Below, piece by piece: positions 3,383-55,436 of a DNA stretch of 64,000 nucleotides (its first letter is position 1; each line of letters begins with the position of its first letter). Below the pieces are notes generated by a model. That model was not told the origin of the DNA. It was given only the letters and a program-made list of their open reading frames with translations, and did not search any database. Source of the DNA: Spirochaetota bacterium (GTDB taxonomy: Bacteria; Spirochaetota; UBA4802; JAGODF01); assembly GCA_036846345.1 (NCBI GenBank), contig DAIUCD010000005.1, positions 110,155-174,154 of the forward strand. The letters run 5' to 3'. Both the position numbers and the translations under genes were made by a program.

Positions 3383-4417
3383 TCATTCGTGCCGGACAAC
3401 ATGCAGGGAGTGGATCTGCCCGTATTTAGTGCCCGGAGGAACTTCCACCGGCACCTTTTTCATATTCTTCCAATAAAAAAGACCTCCGTCGGATGCCAAT
3501 GAGACGCTGCACCCCAGGTAGATATCCCCATTGACGGCAAACAGGGAACTGGCGGAAAGCTCCTTTTCCGCAAGAGGGAAGCGGGTCCCGTTTTTCCAGT
3601 AGAAGGTACCTGGTCCCTCCACAAGCAGATAGAGGTCTTTCCCGGTGCTGTATAGGTAACGTATTTCCGCGCCCTGGATGAAATCGACCCGCTTGCCGTT
3701 TTTCCAGTAGCAGGCGGTTTTATTACCGGCGCTATCAGACCAGTTGCCGGTGATGTAGGTATCCCGTCCAACAAGGTAAAGGTCCCGGAAGGCCGTGTAG
3801 CTCGCCCCGGCGGGTTTGGGGAGATTTACCCGGATGCCATTGCGTAGATAGAAGTAATGAAAGGATTCCTTTCGGGTGGTGTGGGACCCGAGGATATGCA
3901 CGGTGTTGCCGACTACAATGAGGGAGTATACGGTGGGATTAACCGCGCCTTCCGGAAGCCGGATATCGACCCGCTTGCCGTTTTTCCAGTAACAGGCGGT
4001 TTTCCTCCAATCCTTCTCGTAGGAACCGCCGATGTAGATGTCGTCCCCCTGAAGAAAGAGCGCATTGGCCTCCCCGAGGACGCTTTTGGGGGGCAGGCTG
4101 AGCAAATGCCTCCTGGTGTTTTTCCAGTAGCAGGGGGATTCGAGATGATAACCTTCCCGCAAACACTTTCCGATGATGTGAACGTCCTTTCCCCGGGGTA
4201 AAATCCTGATCGCCTCGGCTCCTTTGCCGAGGTCCACACGTCTGCCGTTTTTCCAATAACAGGCGGTCCTGCTGCCCTTTGCATCCAGGTAATAGCCGGT
4301 CAGATAGACGTCCGGATCCGGCCCGGGAGCGGCCGGAAGGCCGTTCAGGAGGAGAATGAGGGCTGTCAGGGCGGTCGTTAGAATAACCGGTAGCAGGAGT
4401 TGACTTTTTCGGCTCAT
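3383..4417 (-). CDS. secreted repeat protein with seven ~45-aa 'C/F-YWKNG-xR-V-D/L' repeats (predicted beta-propeller-like)
   Basis: Signal peptide MSRKSQLLLPVILTTALTALILLL; seven copies of the CYWKNGKRVDL/FYWKNGTRFPL motif, each followed by a V-Y-x-x-G segment. Confidence 0.7.
   Translation of the reverse strand: MSRKSQLLLPVILTTALTALILLLNGLPAAPGPDPDVYLTGYYLDAKGSRTACYWKNGRRVDLGKGAEAIRILPRGKDVHIIGKCLREGYHLESPCYWKNTRRHLLSLPPKSVLGEANALFLQGDDIYIGGSYEKDWRKTACYWKNGKRVDIRLPEGAVNPTVYSLIVVGNTVHILGSHTTRKESFHYFYLRNGIRVNLPKPAGASYTAFRDLYLVGRDTYITGNWSDSAGNKTACYWKNGKRVDFIQGAEIRYLYSTGKDLYLLVEGPGTFYWKNGTRFPLAEKELSASSLFAVNGDIYLGCSVSLASDGGLFYWKNMKKVPVEVPPGTKYGQIHSLHVVRHE
3585..4270. repeat. intragenic DNA repeats (~30 nt near-identical segments at ~3685-3721, 3967-4003, 4239-4270, plus degenerate copies) encoding the protein repeats
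   Basis: 'cgcttgccgtttttccagta(a/g)caggcggtttt' seen three times at ~275-280 bp spacing. Confidence 0.7.
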
Positions 4418-5737: not shown

Positions 5738-6505
5738 ATGGAACAGAAAGCGATTTTTATCATCCTAGACATCAGCGGTTATACCCGCTTCATGCTGTCC
5801 AAGGAGAAGCGGGCGCTGGCCCATGCCCAGATCATCATCTCCGAGCTGCTGGAGGAGGTGCTGAAGCATGTGGAGCTGCCGATGTTCGTCGCCAAGCTGG
5901 AGGGGGACGCCATATTCCTTTACGCAACGGAGGAGGGATTGGACCATTTTTCCCTCGCCATGAGGGCCTTCGTGGGGGAAAGGCTCCTGCTCTTCTTTGA
6001 CGTCTTTTATGCCCGCCTTGTTGATATCCGGGGACACATGGCCTCCTGCAACTGCGGCGGCTGCCGCAATGCCGACAAGCTCCGCATCAAGGCCGTCATC
6101 CACAGCGGGATGGCGCTCTTCTACCGCATAGGCCGCTTCGAGGAGGTGGCGGGACAGGATGTCATCCTGGTCCACCGTCTTTTGAAGAACTCTGTGCCCT
6201 CTAGGGAATACATCCTGATGACTAAGGAAGCCTACCGGGAGATCACCTTTCCCTGCAGGCTTCCCTTTACCGAGCATCGCGAAAATTACGAGGACGTGGG
6301 GGATGTTAAGGCCTTCGTCTTCATTCCCCCCTCCCGGGACGAGGAGCTGGACCGCTGCCTGGCCCGGTTTCATGAGGAGGAATCCGCATTAATGCGAGGC
6401 CTTAAGAAATTGAAGCATGTCGGTGTCGTCTTCTCCAAGTATCTCCTTCCTGTTTCTCTCAAGGTCCGCCGGTTGCGGCCTCTGAGAAATCTCAAAGAAG
6501 AATAG
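5738..6505 (+). CDS. DUF2652-like protein (distant class III nucleotidyl-cyclase-like fold)
   Basis: N-terminus IFIILDISGYTRFM resembles the cyclase metal-binding strand; Cys cluster CNCGGC. Confidence 0.5.
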   Translation: MEQKAIFIILDISGYTRFMLSKEKRALAHAQIIISELLEEVLKHVELPMFVAKLEGDAIFLYATEEGLDHFSLAMRAFVGERLLLFFDVFYARLVDIRGHMASCNCGGCRNADKLRIKAVIHSGMALFYRIGRFEEVAGQDVILVHRLLKNSVPSREYILMTKEAYREITFPCRLPFTEHRENYEDVGDVKAFVFIPPSRDEELDRCLARFHEEESALMRGLKKLKHVGVVFSKYLLPVSLKVRRLRPLRNLKEE

Positions 6506-6764: not shown

Positions 6765-7577
6765 TCAGATATCGGGAAACACAGGTTTCTTCTTCTGAAG
6801 GAATGCCGACACGCCATGAAAACACTCTCCTGAGATGATGAGAGCAACCGCGCGGTCCGATTCCTCGGCCAGGGACTCGTTGTAGGTCCGGTTCCTGCTC
6901 TCCCGCAGGAGCGCCAGGGAGTGGCGGATCGCCTGCGGGCCGTTGCCGGCGATGGCCCGGGCCATCGCAACAGCTTCCCCGAGCGCAAGGCCGCGTTCGC
7001 ATATCCTGCTTACCAGTCCCATAGACAGGGCCTCCTCGGCTCCTACACGGCGTCCTGTGAGCACCAGGTCGGCGGCCCTGGAGGCTCCCACGAGACGCGG
7101 AAGCGCGGCGCCGCCGCCGTGATCCGGCATGAGGCCCAGGCTCACCTCGGAATAGCAGATAAAGGCACCCCGGACCATGACCCTGAGGTCACACCGTACA
7201 GCCAGCTCCGCACCTCCGCCGAAGGCGTTTCCGTTCAGGGCGGCGATGGTCGGCACAGGGAGCGAGCAGAAAGCGTCGATGACCTCCCGTATCCTGCTGA
7301 TGGCCTCTCTCGCCGGGACCTCGTCCTTTGCAGTGACTGCGTCGATGAGTCGTTTCATCATGGGATTGTCCGGCTGGACATCGAAACCCGCGCTAAAAGA
7401 CCTGTCGCCGCTTCCGGTGATGACGATTGCCCGAGGGGTGGCTTTGCGAAGTTCCCTGGTAACCTCCTCCAGAAGGGTCAGCATCCTGTCGTTAAAGGAG
7501 TGGTGCCTGTCGGGGCGGTCGAGGGTGACTACCGCGATGTTATCAATTCGATCAAGGGTGATGTTTCCGTCGTTCAT
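6765..7577 (-). CDS. enoyl-CoA hydratase/isomerase (crotonase family)
   Basis: ALNGNAFGGGAELAVRCDLRV oxyanion-hole/catalytic region; 270 aa. Confidence 0.9.
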   Translation of the reverse strand: MNDGNITLDRIDNIAVVTLDRPDRHHSFNDRMLTLLEEVTRELRKATPRAIVITGSGDRSFSAGFDVQPDNPMMKRLIDAVTAKDEVPAREAISRIREVIDAFCSLPVPTIAALNGNAFGGGAELAVRCDLRVMVRGAFICYSEVSLGLMPDHGGGAALPRLVGASRAADLVLTGRRVGAEEALSMGLVSRICERGLALGEAVAMARAIAGNGPQAIRHSLALLRESRNRTYNESLAEESDRAVALIISGECFHGVSAFLQKKKPVFPDI

Positions 7578-7649
7578 ATACTCTCCTCCCGTTATGGATT
7601 GCCGTGTACCCGAAACGCATGTGTCCCTCCGGGGCTCATGCGTCTATGG

Positions 7650-8657
7650 TCAGGACCGGTCTTTCAGAGTGACAACGTTCCTTCCGCGGTGTCGTCCGGC
7701 CTTCATGAGGGATAATACATCTTCCAGGCCATCCAGACCGATCTCATCTGCAAGTTCGTCAAGCCAGGGGAACTTCCAATCCCCGGCAAGATGTCCCCAG
7801 ACCTCCCTCCTTAGGGGCATGGGACAGTTCTGTGAGTCAATACCGAAGAGGGATACCCCGCGCAGGATGAAGGGATATACTGTCAAAGCGAGGTCGGGTG
7901 ATAGGACGTTGCCGCAACAGGTAACACCCCCCCCCGCTATGGTTGACTTGATGGCGTAGGTCAGCACCGGTCCCCCCACCGTGTCGATGCACCCCGCGAA
8001 GCGTTCCTTAAGCAGAGGCCGGTCGGTCACATCGGCGGCCTCATCTGAAGTCACAATCGATTTGGCGCCGCACTTAATCAGCAGGTCCGGTGCGTCCGCC
8101 GGTCCCTGAAGGGCGGCGATAGAATAGCCGAGGTGTGACAGGATGGAGACCGCTATACTCCCAACGCCGCCAGCAGCGCCTGTAACCAGAATTGGGCCGC
8201 GGTCGGGACTGCGCAGCCATCCCAGCAGGCGGTGTACAGAGAGACCAGCGGTAAGACCTGCGGTCCCGAAAATCATACTCTCACGAAGCGTCAATCCCGC
8301 TGGTTTTGGTACAGCCCACGCAGCGGGAACCCGTATGTACTGACCAAATCCACCGGAGGTGTTCATACCGAGGTCGTAGCTCGTGACTATAACCTCGTCA
8401 CCCAGTTTGAACGGGCCGTCTCCGCAGGAGACGACGATTCCCGCCGCGTCAATGCCGGGCGTGTGAGGATAGTTTTTCGTCACGCCCCGGTTGCCTGTTG
8501 CTGAGAGCATGTCCTTGTAGTTAAGCGACGAGTAGTGGACTTCCACGAGCAGGTCGCCTGCGGGCAGGTCATCAATGGTCCGCATCTCGATCTTCCGCAT
8601 AAAGGATTTATCCTCATTTTCCCGTACGACAAGGGCCTTGAACTGTTTTTGTATCAT
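7650..8657 (-). CDS. MDR-family NADPH-dependent oxidoreductase (YhdH/AcuI acrylyl-CoA reductase / quinone oxidoreductase type)
   Basis: KALVV...LLVEVHYSSLNYKD...TPGIDAAGIVV N-terminus typical of the YhdH subfamily; GGVG nucleotide motif; GGAGG RBS. Confidence 0.85.
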   Translation of the reverse strand: MIQKQFKALVVRENEDKSFMRKIEMRTIDDLPAGDLLVEVHYSSLNYKDMLSATGNRGVTKNYPHTPGIDAAGIVVSCGDGPFKLGDEVIVTSYDLGMNTSGGFGQYIRVPAAWAVPKPAGLTLRESMIFGTAGLTAGLSVHRLLGWLRSPDRGPILVTGAAGGVGSIAVSILSHLGYSIAALQGPADAPDLLIKCGAKSIVTSDEAADVTDRPLLKERFAGCIDTVGGPVLTYAIKSTIAGGGVTCCGNVLSPDLALTVYPFILRGVSLFGIDSQNCPMPLRREVWGHLAGDWKFPWLDELADEIGLDGLEDVLSLMKAGRHRGRNVVTLKDRS

Positions 8658-8723
8658 GATTCCTCCTTATAGGTCATAATGGATGATGCGATGTCAATGT
8701 ACCGGTGCGTATTAACGGCTATG

Positions 8724-9326
8724 TTATACGGAAACGTCATCTCCGCGTTGAATATCCTGCAGCGTCAGGATGAGGGATGCGATGGTCGTGTTCAGGTTAT
8801 TACGGGAATGGTCGAGATTGTAGATCACGCAGGCCCCCAGCAGTCCCGTGAAGATGATTTCCGTCACCCGGGCCGTGTCCGCCTCGGGCTTTGTGAATGC
8901 CGCTTCCTTTCCCTCATCAAGGAGACGCTGTATCATGCGTTGAAGCCTCGTGAAGCCCTCGTTCACCTCTGCTGCAAGCTCCGGGTTCTGGCCGGCCAGC
9001 TCCACGGCAAAGGTGACGAAGATGCATCCCCCGGGAAATGTATGGGAGTCGGTAAGGTAAAGGTCGCGGTAGTTTTCCAGGAGCTTTTGCAGCCGTTTCA
9101 GGGGGTTCCCGATCTCATCCAGCCCCGCCAGGTTTCTTTCGCGCCAGATCTTCCTGGCTCTCGAGAGGGCGGCGGTAAAGAGCTCCTCCTTCGTCTTAAA
9201 ATGGTTGTAGAAACCGCCCTTCGATGTCCCGGCAGCGGAGATGATCTCCGTGGTGGAGGTGCTTGCATACCCTTTGAGGGAAAAAAGCTTCAGGGCTTCG
9301 TCGATGATTCGATCTTTCAGTGTCAT
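8724..9326 (-). CDS. TetR/AcrR family transcriptional regulator
   Basis: N-terminal HTH (ALKLFSLKGYASTSTTEIISAAGTSKGGFYNHFKTKEELF). Confidence 0.9.
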   Translation of the reverse strand: MTLKDRIIDEALKLFSLKGYASTSTTEIISAAGTSKGGFYNHFKTKEELFTAALSRARKIWRERNLAGLDEIGNPLKRLQKLLENYRDLYLTDSHTFPGGCIFVTFAVELAGQNPELAAEVNEGFTRLQRMIQRLLDEGKEAAFTKPEADTARVTEIIFTGLLGACVIYNLDHSRNNLNTTIASLILTLQDIQRGDDVSV

Positions 9327-9345
9327 AGGTTTGTGTTGTGTTTAA

Positions 9346-9379
9346 CAGGGAAAACAGACCGACCGGTCTCCCTGTTTTT
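9346..9379 (+). other. GC-rich stem-loop followed by T5 (terminator-like or regulatory hairpin)
   Basis: caggg-aaaac-agacc-gacc-ggtct-ccctg-ttttt read directly from the sequence. Confidence 0.35.
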
Positions 9380-9409
9380 GACATTGCCATTTCACCTGCT
9401 TTGTGTCAA
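9378..9409. promoter_or_regulatory. inverted repeat TTGACA-N20-TGTCAA in the tetR / divergent promoter region; candidate operator or -35 elements
   Basis: ttgacattgccatttcacctgctttgtgtcaa; a TATTAT -10-like hexamer follows at ~9423. Confidence 0.3.
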
Positions 9410-10224
9410 GGAAAAAATGATTTATTATCAGGCCCCTGAGGAAACTGAGGCATGCCCGGGCCCTCTTCTCCATGCATCACCTTCATGTTTCTATAAGGAT
9501 CCGCCTTGGAGGGGGGATGCCTTTCCCATAGTTGATTCATATCTGAACATAATATTTGGTCGTTTTGTCTATATTTATGGGGGGAGAGATGCGGCGGGGT
9601 TAATAAGATGTTCAAAGCATTAAAATTTTGGTTTGGGAATTATCCGGAACTAAAAAAATTTTGTTAGATTTTAAGGCCCACTGAAGAGGGGTTTTTTGCC
9701 TGGGGGGTGTTAACTTCCCGGGTAGTGTATTTTTCATAGAGGCATTCTGTCGAGGAACATTTTGCATTGAAGGGATGGTAATTTCCTAGATATTCAAGGA
9801 GGTGGAGTACATCCCATTGCAACCCGACCCTAAAACCATCCGCCGAAGGCGGATACATGTCGCCTAACTGCAACGCGAAGGGCAGCACTACTGCAGCACT
9901 CAGGCGGGATGCCGTCGGGGTATCGCACTGAACCAAATCCTGCGAAGCAGGTTTGGTGAGTTTAGGCGTCAGGCACTCAGGCGACTGAGGAGAGCGTGGG
10001 GATGTGAAGGAGAGAATTTCGCCTAAAAACTCCTCCTTCGAAAGAGGTTCCTCCTCAGGAACAAGCCCCCCGCCCAGGGGACCAGTAAAGTAAACTCCCT
10101 GAAGTACTTATTGATCAAAGGATTAATCCCCCCAAAAGCAATTGTGCTGAAAATAGAAATCATCCCCCAATGTAATTAAAAAAAGGTTGTACGAAAACCG
10201 AAATCCTGTTTCTACTGTTGACAG

Positions 10225-11046
10225 ATGAAATCACCACCAGTCGAAGATAAGGCATGTATTGATAAAATGAAACCCATAAGAACACTGCCGATCCTACTGA
10301 TAATCCTCCTGGCGGCCTGCGCCACTGTGCCGCCCCCGCCTGTTCCCGAAAGCGAGCAGAGCTCTCTGATCGGCATGGCACTGGTCATCAGCAGCGAGGC
10401 GTATCAGCCGGACAGTCCCTCGGAGGTTCTCTTTATCCGGCTGGAGGAGGGCGATAAATCGTATTTAAGCGTTAATGAGGTCATCAGATCCCATTATGCC
10501 AGAGAGGGGCAGTATTACCTGCTGAACGCGAAGCCCGGGCGTTACATCGCCGTGGCAGCCTGCAGCAGAAGAGGGAAAGGAAAGGGGGACGGCGGGGCAT
10601 CCGCCGTAAAGCAGATGTATTATCTCCCTTTAAAAGTGATGCAGCTTTCCGATGTATCCCTGAAGGAGGGGGAAGCCGCTTTCATGGGCAAATACATGGT
10701 TCATCTGCCCTCCGGGTTTAAATTTTCCACCGGTCTGGCCAATCCGGATGAGGCCCAGTCTTTTTACTGCAAACGGTTCCAGCCGGATCAGCTCGTTCCC
10801 GGCACGGACGGCTATATCAAGGGGGTAATAAAGGGTATCGTCCGCCGAGAAGGAGACGCCGCCCATGCCGTTAAGCTTCAGGAATCTCATAAAGATGCCA
10901 AAAGCGAAATGGAATTCTGGCAAAAGGCCAAGGATCATTTCCGGGGGGATTCCCGGCAGAGAAAGGAATACGGGGATATCGTAGAGAAGAACCAGGTCTG
11001 GCTGAAGATCATCGACCGGCATCTGGATAAACTGAAAGGTCGATAA
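10225..11046 (+). CDS. lipoprotein of unknown function (alternative start at 10267)
   Basis: Signal peptide with lipobox LLAAC; no recognisable enzymatic motif. Confidence 0.6.
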   Translation: MKSPPVEDKACIDKMKPIRTLPILLIILLAACATVPPPPVPESEQSSLIGMALVISSEAYQPDSPSEVLFIRLEEGDKSYLSVNEVIRSHYAREGQYYLLNAKPGRYIAVAACSRRGKGKGDGGASAVKQMYYLPLKVMQLSDVSLKEGEAAFMGKYMVHLPSGFKFSTGLANPDEAQSFYCKRFQPDQLVPGTDGYIKGVIKGIVRREGDAAHAVKLQESHKDAKSEMEFWQKAKDHFRGDSRQRKEYGDIVEKNQVWLKIIDRHLDKLKGR

Positions 11047-11360
11047 CAGAGGATTTCACACGGCTTCCTGTCTCAAGCGGGATCTGATCAATCGGGGCGG
11101 CGGATTCGGCTTGAGGATCCCTCTAGCGGTTCATTAGGCCTGTACGGCGCCGTATGAATGCCGCGCCAACCCCTGGCCTCATAAGGATTCCCTGAAGGAG
11201 CAGCTTTCCCGCCGGATGAAAAAGTAATGGCATAAACATCCCCCCTCCCTTAGGATTGAACCCGGTCAGGACCATGAAAAGGCAAAAGGACAGGAAAGCC
11301 GGGACTGCCCCGGAGTGTTTGGAAGACCGTTCCTGCCGTAGGGGGAGGGATATATAAACA

Positions 11361-55164: not shown

Positions 55165-55436
55165 AATTCTCTAATAAAAAATAATTGCAAAAACCCGCGA
55201 ATGCCGTGTAGGTAATAATTTTTGAACCTGTTTACACAGGTGGGTTTCCTCATGTTGAATTCAACCTTCTCTCGTGAAAGAGTATGGTTTTCTTGAACAG
55301 ATTTAGAATCCCTTTTCATATAATATTGGTACAAAAATGTTGATACCTATCTCGAGCATCGCAGGCTATACTCAAATAAACAACAGAGAAGACATAATTT
55401 CAACTATTTTTTACAAGTTAAACGGGGATGTGAGTC

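Follow-up and report, generated by a model that had tools for sequence, protein, structure and literature searches.

Our analysis of a 64,000-nt stretch of DNA from an uncultured member of the Spirochaetota (GenBank assembly GCA_036846345.1, contig DAIUCD010000005.1; hereafter the window, to which all coordinates refer) points to a model in which the long gap between a TetR-family repressor gene, tetR (8724-9326, minus strand), and a lipoprotein gene on the plus strand consists, on balance, of an ordinary tetR control region under autoregulation and, after it, of filler specific to the strain. We are confident that the left end of this gap (9327 to ~9425) is an autoregulatory AcuR/NemR-type promoter and operator. 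Supported function is probably limited to the left ~100 bp, and in the other ~840 bp, which are DNA specific to the strain, a single gene fragment can be identified. The spacer between tetR and the lipoprotein open reading frame (ORF) spans 9327-10224 (898 bp, or 940 bp if the ATG at 10267 is used), and in a rough gene call by simple codon usage it is the longest in the window, the next one measuring 493 bp and the median 96 bp. An earlier note made from the sequence of this DNA had called the gap unusually long and had proposed that it holds a structured noncoding RNA or a long regulatory leader for the lipoprotein gene. The length does exceed chance, and all the motifs named there (hairpins, repeats, hexamers and a duplicate) are present in the sequence.

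In an alignment of the 130 nt upstream of tetR with 15 relatives, two elements are conserved: TTGACA and, ~30-45 nt downstream of it, the palindrome AGACCG-NN-CGGTCT. The first corresponds in the window to the tetR -35 box at 9404-9409, which reads TTGACA on the minus strand; 12 of the 15 relatives in the alignment have TTGACA or a one-off variant at this position. The second is the predicted TetR operator at 9356-9369, AGACCG-AC-CGGTCT, which has the form AGAC-N6-GTCT and precedes the ATG of tetR by 29 nt. The exact 14-mer stands immediately upstream of tetR in 21 related loci; across loci its two central bases are either GT or AC and its arms never vary, and fixed arms with a flipping centre are what is expected for a symmetric site bound by a dimer. 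The window contains this 14-mer once, and an exact-copy scan found no second TetR operator near the lipoprotein gene. Five relatives (L016, L020, L089, L090 and L092) carry a second exact copy directly downstream of tetR. A weak candidate for the -10 box, CAATGT on the minus strand, lies at 9381-9386, 17 nt from the -35 box; this assignment is tentative, and the -10 region is ill-defined in the alignment of tetR upstream DNA.

The palindrome is the core of a hairpin at 9346-9379 (predicted ΔG -13.1 kcal/mol) that is followed by five T residues and that the earlier note had described as a GC-rich stem-loop with a T-run. The hairpin is real, and its palindromic core goes beyond chance in being conserved across relatives; it is an operator, not a terminator. 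Considered as an intrinsic terminator, 9346-9379 has the GC-rich stem and U-run of such elements but no transcription unit of its own strand ends there, and it was rejected because no plus-strand gene lies upstream, the minus strand here is the 5' region of tetR, and the relatives, which keep the palindrome, do not keep the T-run. What looked like a terminator is thus a conserved operator of the AcuR/NemR type, which removes a false lead. The earlier note had also offered an inverted repeat, TTGACA-N20-TGTCAA, as a candidate TetR operator or pair of -35 boxes. Both arms (9378-9383 and 9404-9409) and the TATTAT hexamer that follows (9423-9428) were located; the right arm is the tetR -35 box, but the left arm is not conserved, the closest relative (L007) carrying CAGTATCC there, and the operator lies elsewhere, at 9356-9369. 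The regulatory reading of the left end was therefore right in that TetR control elements exist there and wrong in the elements to which it assigned this role.

The repressor matches the Pfam families TetR_N and TetR_C_13 and is encoded by the first gene of an operon that continues with genes of the acrylyl-CoA reductase and enoyl-CoA hydratase families. With TIGR02823, the model of the YhdH/AcuI acrylyl-CoA reductase family, whose cut-off is 297, the gene after tetR reaches 403 bits, and AcuR (NF051457) is the second-best NCBIfam match of the repressor, at 53.3 bits below its cut-off of 247 bits. By sequence, the repressor appears AcuR/NemR-like in its working, and we do not class it as an ortholog of either. 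Its relatives are 82% identical in L007 and 72-76% identical in L008-L012, all of them uncultured Spirochaetota and Leptospirales genome bins, and more distant relatives occur in other phyla. The three-gene block of tetR, oxidoreductase and enoyl-CoA hydratase is syntenic with L007-L012. The conserved operator extends the AcuR/NemR operator type to uncultured Spirochaetota and Leptospirales that possess an operon of tetR, an acuI-like gene and an enoyl-CoA hydratase gene. As a whole, the operon (6765-9326, minus strand) has the appearance of a unit for detoxifying acrylate or acrylyl-CoA.

The likeness to the AcuR system concerns both gene order and operator. In Rhodobacter sphaeroides, the AcuR operator is TAATAGAC/n6/GTCTATTA, as proven by mutation (PMC3017554). 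As in that system, a TetR repressor comes first in its own operon, with a reductase of the YhdH/AcuI family next (PMC3017554), an inverted-repeat operator with an AGAC-N6-GTCT core is located at the promoter, and the repressor gene lacks a Shine-Dalgarno sequence. The two systems also differ. With the NCBIfam AcuR model, whose cut-off is 247, the repressor described here reaches no more than 53 bits; third in order comes an enoyl-CoA hydratase gene instead of dddL; the host belongs to the Spirochaetota and is uncultured; and the operator lies downstream of the -35 and -10 boxes, 29 nt before the ATG. Because the operator is downstream of both boxes, a short leader is likely here rather than a leaderless mRNA.

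The operator itself closely resembles that of NemR, the repressor of nemR-nemA-gloA in Escherichia coli: the palindrome upstream of nemR, as read from the E. coli genome, is TAGACCGACTGGTCTA, which is near-identical to AGACCGACCGGTCT at 9356-9369, and in both cases the site lies between the promoter and the start codon of the repressor's own gene. The name NemR box and the footprinting of this site reportedly go back to Umezawa and colleagues in 2008. Cys101 of the repressor described here aligns with the sensor Cys106 of NemR, although the proteins are only 20% identical and the regulated enzymes differ. The structure PDB 4yze matches our repressor at E = 3e-8, ranking behind other TetR proteins. 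NemR Cys106 has been reported to sense hypochlorous acid (HOCl), and electrophiles inactivate NemR via cysteine modification (PMC3739934).

In our model of the control region, the minus strand would be read in the order TTGACA -35 box, weak -10 box and palindrome, with the palindrome placed between the promoter and the tetR ATG. The TetR protein encoded by the adjoining gene most likely binds 9356-9369 as a dimer and would thereby repress its own operon, and an electrophilic or acrylate-like inducer would free the repressor, as with AcuR and NemR. Conservation and placement of the site are direct observations; the binding of the repressor and the nature of the inducer are inferences.

To the right of the promoter, the relationship to other genomes ends abruptly. 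Similarity to the closest relative, the one with 82% TetR identity, stops at ~9421-9431, and in that relative the divergent gene is a different one and the gap is only 200 bp long. Where contigs reach far enough, the gaps upstream of tetR in relatives measure ~80-650 bp and are unrelated in sequence to the gap in the window. When 9400-10266 was compared by blastn, tblastx and nhmmer with our comparison set of 155 tetR-related loci from genomes and metagenomes, the operator/promoter region alone was matched, and the gap found no match in plasmid and phage collections. The earlier note had looked to conservation in related genomes for a decision on its proposal; as far as the data reach (155 loci; plasmid, phage, viral and metagenome contigs; two protein libraries), no homolog of the DNA at ~9420-10266 was found.

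The first piece beyond the break can be identified. At 9431-9509 (plus strand), ~10 nt past the end of synteny, lies a copy, now decayed, of the 3' coding end (6396-6475) of a DUF2652 gene (blastn, 76% over 71 nt, E = 1.4e-8), a gene that sits across the tetR operon from the gap. An nhmmer search returned 9431-9509 with E = 6e-23, a circular value in that the two-copy profile includes the same sequence. The C-terminal tail of DUF2652 is weakly conserved among homologs of 250 amino acids (aa). We regard 9431-9509 as a decayed gene fragment because it matches the coding tail of the DUF2652 gene, yet its in-frame translation is only 41% identical to the DUF2652 end. The 79-nt repeat was also considered as an RNA element and rejected, since folding of the consensus yields weak energies of -7.2 and -5.2 kcal/mol and there is no conserved fold. 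Homologs of DUF2652 were of no use for establishing synteny, the nearest being 52% identical. Together, the two copies (6396-6475 and 9431-9509, 76%) form a direct repeat of ~80 nt that brackets the tetR / acuI-like / enoyl-CoA hydratase block, and the sequence arrangement suggests that the operon may have reached its position by duplicative rearrangement.

Altogether, we propose that the filler from ~9430 to 10266 would comprise the decayed copy of the DUF2652 3' end, an AT-rich stretch ending in a terminator-like hairpin, ~330 nt with a GC content at the level of coding DNA, and an AT-rich stretch that presumably holds the promoter of the lipoprotein gene. The ~330-nt part is most likely decayed or acquired DNA in which hairpins are incidental, and a rearrangement that broke synteny at the tetR promoter probably gave rise to all of the filler. 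Such an origin has parallels in known pseudogene fragments and rearrangement scars, which share with the gap a decayed 3' end of a neighbouring gene (79 nt) at a break in synteny, and DNA of coding-level GC that has neither an open frame nor a homolog. Unlike in such fragments, no parent gene was identified for the 330-nt part, and its origin from decayed coding DNA is conjectural.

The ~400-nt stretch that the earlier note had called GC-rich does differ from the AT-rich spacers around it (GC 0.31-0.45), but its own GC of 0.52-0.60 is simply that of coding DNA here, and the segment and the genome both have 57% GC. When a genome has 57% GC, a long gap whose core is rich in GC gives by itself no evidence of structured RNA, because such DNA has coding-level composition. 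A duplication of cactcaggcg had been pointed out as well; it is present as the 11-mer GCACTCAGGCG at 9896 and 9973, although at a level compatible with chance (~0.1 such repeats expected per 900 bp by our estimate), and we do not regard it as significant. ARAGORN and Tandem Repeats Finder reported nothing in the gap.

Two near-identical contigs, found through an AraC protein cluster, allowed strain variants to be compared. Contigs of the same strain are 100% identical. A co-occurring variant, L164 (ERZ724081), carries six single-nucleotide polymorphisms (SNPs) at 9597-9656 (45-104 of L164). This cluster falls within 60 nt of the AT-rich part and could be due to a mosaic left by recombination or to chimerism in a low-coverage assembly. 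The sister strain L165 (ERR14964780), ~99% identical in genes, covers the spacer downstream of the lipoprotein gene (11047-11360; 1-350 of L165), which is non-coding with a GC of 0.56, and differs there at ~12 of 314 nt (roughly 4%), while its coding sequence shows 7 differences in 1,500 nt. By this comparison, a spacer of coding-level GC appears to evolve fast and without visible constraint. The GC-rich segment of the gap has no SNP in the two strain variants, which is uninformative on constraint.

The segment that invites a structured-RNA reading is an orphan stretch of ~330 nt at 9796-10125, recognized by its coding-level GC and its folds and with no function shown. As claimed in the earlier note, it contains several hairpins (9838-9854, ΔG -10.7; 9932-9957, ΔG -13.5; 9976-9989 with a GCGA loop, ΔG -7.2; and 10047-10062, ΔG -6.8 kcal/mol). 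It could be a lineage-specific structured RNA, either a small RNA or a 5' leader of ~465 nt that would start from the weak promoter at 9767-9794 and form alternative helices, and several observations weigh against our model of filler or in favour of this possibility. The segment folds better than shuffled sequences (z-scores of -1.8 to -3.1), and its local hairpins are strong, one of them with a GNRA loop. CGCCTAA, TTAGGCG and CGCCTAA occur at 9861-9867, 9963-9969 and 10020-10026, and CACTCAG occurs at 9897-9903 and 9974-9980 with a lone CTGAG at 9985-9989, so that in both sets of complementary motifs two copies compete for one partner and mutually exclusive helices are possible, although the motifs are short and carry no statistics. 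At the left edge of the segment stand a promoter-like site (TTGAAG-16-GATATT, 9767-9794, plus strand) and a strong Shine-Dalgarno-like sequence, AAGGAGGTG, at 9796-9804. The segment lacks a coding signal, and a plus-strand terminator-like hairpin upstream of it would insulate a separate unit. This hairpin and its U-run (9696-9735; 13-bp stem, ΔG -19.8 kcal/mol, z = -4.0; terminator function is putative) divide the AT-rich left part of the filler from the GC-rich part. Moreover, L164 has no SNP between 9657 and 11275, no strong promoter is found near the lipoprotein start, which leaves room for a long leader, and the lineage is barely sampled (nearest DUF2652 52%, nearest TetR 82% identical), which makes the absence of homologs weak evidence. 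On the other side, scanning the gap with Rfam, as the earlier note had recommended, matched no known family at gathering thresholds, and ranking by E-value over 9200-10400 gave a best value of 0.31, for implausible families; with neither an Rfam match nor a homolog, covariation cannot be shown. Folding of 9780-10130 (351 nt) gives z-scores of -2.75 (plus) and -3.1 (minus), and the 330-nt stretch gives -1.8 on the plus strand, a value that 9% of 142 background windows equal or undercut, and -2.8 on the minus strand (2%). These background windows, 330 nt each, come from the same 64 kb, are mostly coding DNA and were shuffled in the same way, and their lowest z-scores reach -3.2, making the predicted folding of the segment marginal, barely beyond that of ordinary windows. 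Both strands fold about alike, and neither is therefore favoured. Neither strand has a terminator at the segment's ends, nor does the plus strand have one between 9740 and 10266, and the promoter-like site is mismatched at 4 of 12 positions, as is another weak plus-strand site (TTGTGT-16-TATTAT, 9401-9428); scans for sigma-54 and sigma-28 motifs gave poor matches only. A further 140 nt of unstructured AT-rich DNA separates the segment from the start codon. Riboswitches and long cis-regulatory 5' leaders are similar in being long, partly GC-rich, hairpin-bearing DNA upstream of a gene with possible alternative pairings, but the gap differs from them in having no Rfam family or conserved aptamer and, next to the start codon, no terminator or helix hiding a ribosome-binding site across those 140 unstructured nucleotides. 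A structured RNA or long leader in the gap is thus unsupported by Rfam, by conservation, by folding against the genomic background and by the layout at the start codon, and we consider it unlikely, as we do a structured RNA of this lineage in the ~330-nt segment. That 9796-10125 is a new structured RNA of a barely sampled spirochaete lineage, stand-alone or as a ~465-nt lipoprotein leader acting via competing CGCCUAA / UUAGGCG helices, would be quite unlikely. The orphan segment would become of interest only once constraint on it had been shown by homologs or transcript data.

The gap might instead encode one or more small unannotated proteins, for which three ORFs come into question: one of 90 aa (9664-9936, minus strand), one of 19 aa (9608-9667) and one of 16-18 aa after AAGGAGGTG at 9796. 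The 90-aa ORF starts with TTG, was predicted by one gene caller in one assembly, and is contained in the longest stop-free frame of the gap (minus strand, 9667-10107), which runs for 147 codons. By our estimate, chance would give the gap about 0.2 stop-free stretches of this length. Codon scores per codon are 0.03 for the 147-codon frame and -0.04 for the 90-aa ORF, compared with 0.275 ± 0.114 for real genes, and the GC content at third codon positions (GC3) of both is 0.53-0.54, compared with 0.64-0.75. A dicodon scan found no frame with a sustained gene-like score, the local peaks not exceeding those of the tetR shadow frame, and ten stop-free frames gave nothing meaningful against Pfam. A word-indexed search of 5.8 billion proteins and a full HMMER search of 1.84 billion matched the 147-aa frame to an ORF of the same strain alone, and scans of JGI metagenomes and IMG/VR with back-translated patterns of this frame found no relative. 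We rejected the 90-aa ORF as a gene in view of its non-coding codon usage and low GC3, its lack of a usable ribosome-binding site and the absence of homologs in two protein libraries. The 19-aa ORF (MFKALKFWFGNYPELKKFC, plus strand) is followed by the hairpin at 9696-9725 and its U-run, and together with TATTAT at 9423-9428 the stretch 9608-9735 could define a plus-strand unit of ~300 nt divergent from tetR. Three of the four strain SNPs within this ORF fall at third codon positions, as in a coding sequence, but the fourth creates a stop codon and two more destroy the putative ribosome-binding site. The strong Shine-Dalgarno-like motif at 9796-9804 would have to serve an ATC start codon or a TTG 14 nt away. 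Small proteins in the gap are very unlikely, and the claim of the earlier note that the GC-rich stretch holds no convincing ORF held up against stop-free frames, codon usage and the dicodon scan alike. The origin of the filler could also be sought in an insertion, since an imperfect inverted repeat of 33 nt (9508-9540 and 11216-11248; 24 of 33 positions complementary, an exact outer 12-mer GGAGGGGGGATG, CTT flanking each side) has its arms to either side of the lipoprotein gene and the orphan DNA, and 9508-11248 might be an inserted cassette carrying both, an idea compatible with our model as an account of how the filler arose. The left arm starts directly after the DUF2652 fragment, all DNA inside lacks homologs, and comparable repeat pairs within 2.1 kb number two in the window compared with 0.09 in shuffles. 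However, the only other such pair lies within an ORF of 1754 aa, so such pairs arise without mobility, and the significance of the repeat is uncertain. No transposase or integrase was found, nor a second copy in the window or any collection searched; the lipoprotein gene has native codon usage, and the DNA past the right arm shows no similarity to the 3' flank of the DUF2652 gene. We consider such a cassette decidedly unlikely.

The lipoprotein gene at the right border (10267-11046, plus strand) encodes a signal peptide and a LAAC lipobox. Its ORF opens at 10225, and the more likely start is the ATG at 10267, which gives MKPIRTLPILLIILLAAC with the lipobox. Its codon score of 0.274 per codon is that of a native gene. 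Among 5.8 billion proteins the lipoprotein matched only itself, and no relative was found in GTDB genomes or IMG/VR, nor any match in Pfam, NCBIfam, PHROGs or PADLOC; it is a genuine orphan gene of a poorly sampled lineage. The stretch before it (10126-10266, GC 0.34-0.40) is presumed to hold its promoter, and no sigma-70 consensus site passed our scan there, only weak sites being present. The 240 nt around the start (10060-10300) are unstructured (z = -1.1), with no helix that would hide a ribosome-binding site.

Finally, we note two features elsewhere in the window. A full-length 6S RNA gene at 55188-55370 on the minus strand (RF00013, 97 bits, E = 3e-18) is the sole Rfam match of the window at gathering thresholds. 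A 42-nt unit with the core GTTTTTCCAGTAGCAGG occurs five times at 3572-4270 on the plus strand, irregularly spaced by 108-282 nt, and is probably a repeated protein motif within a gene.

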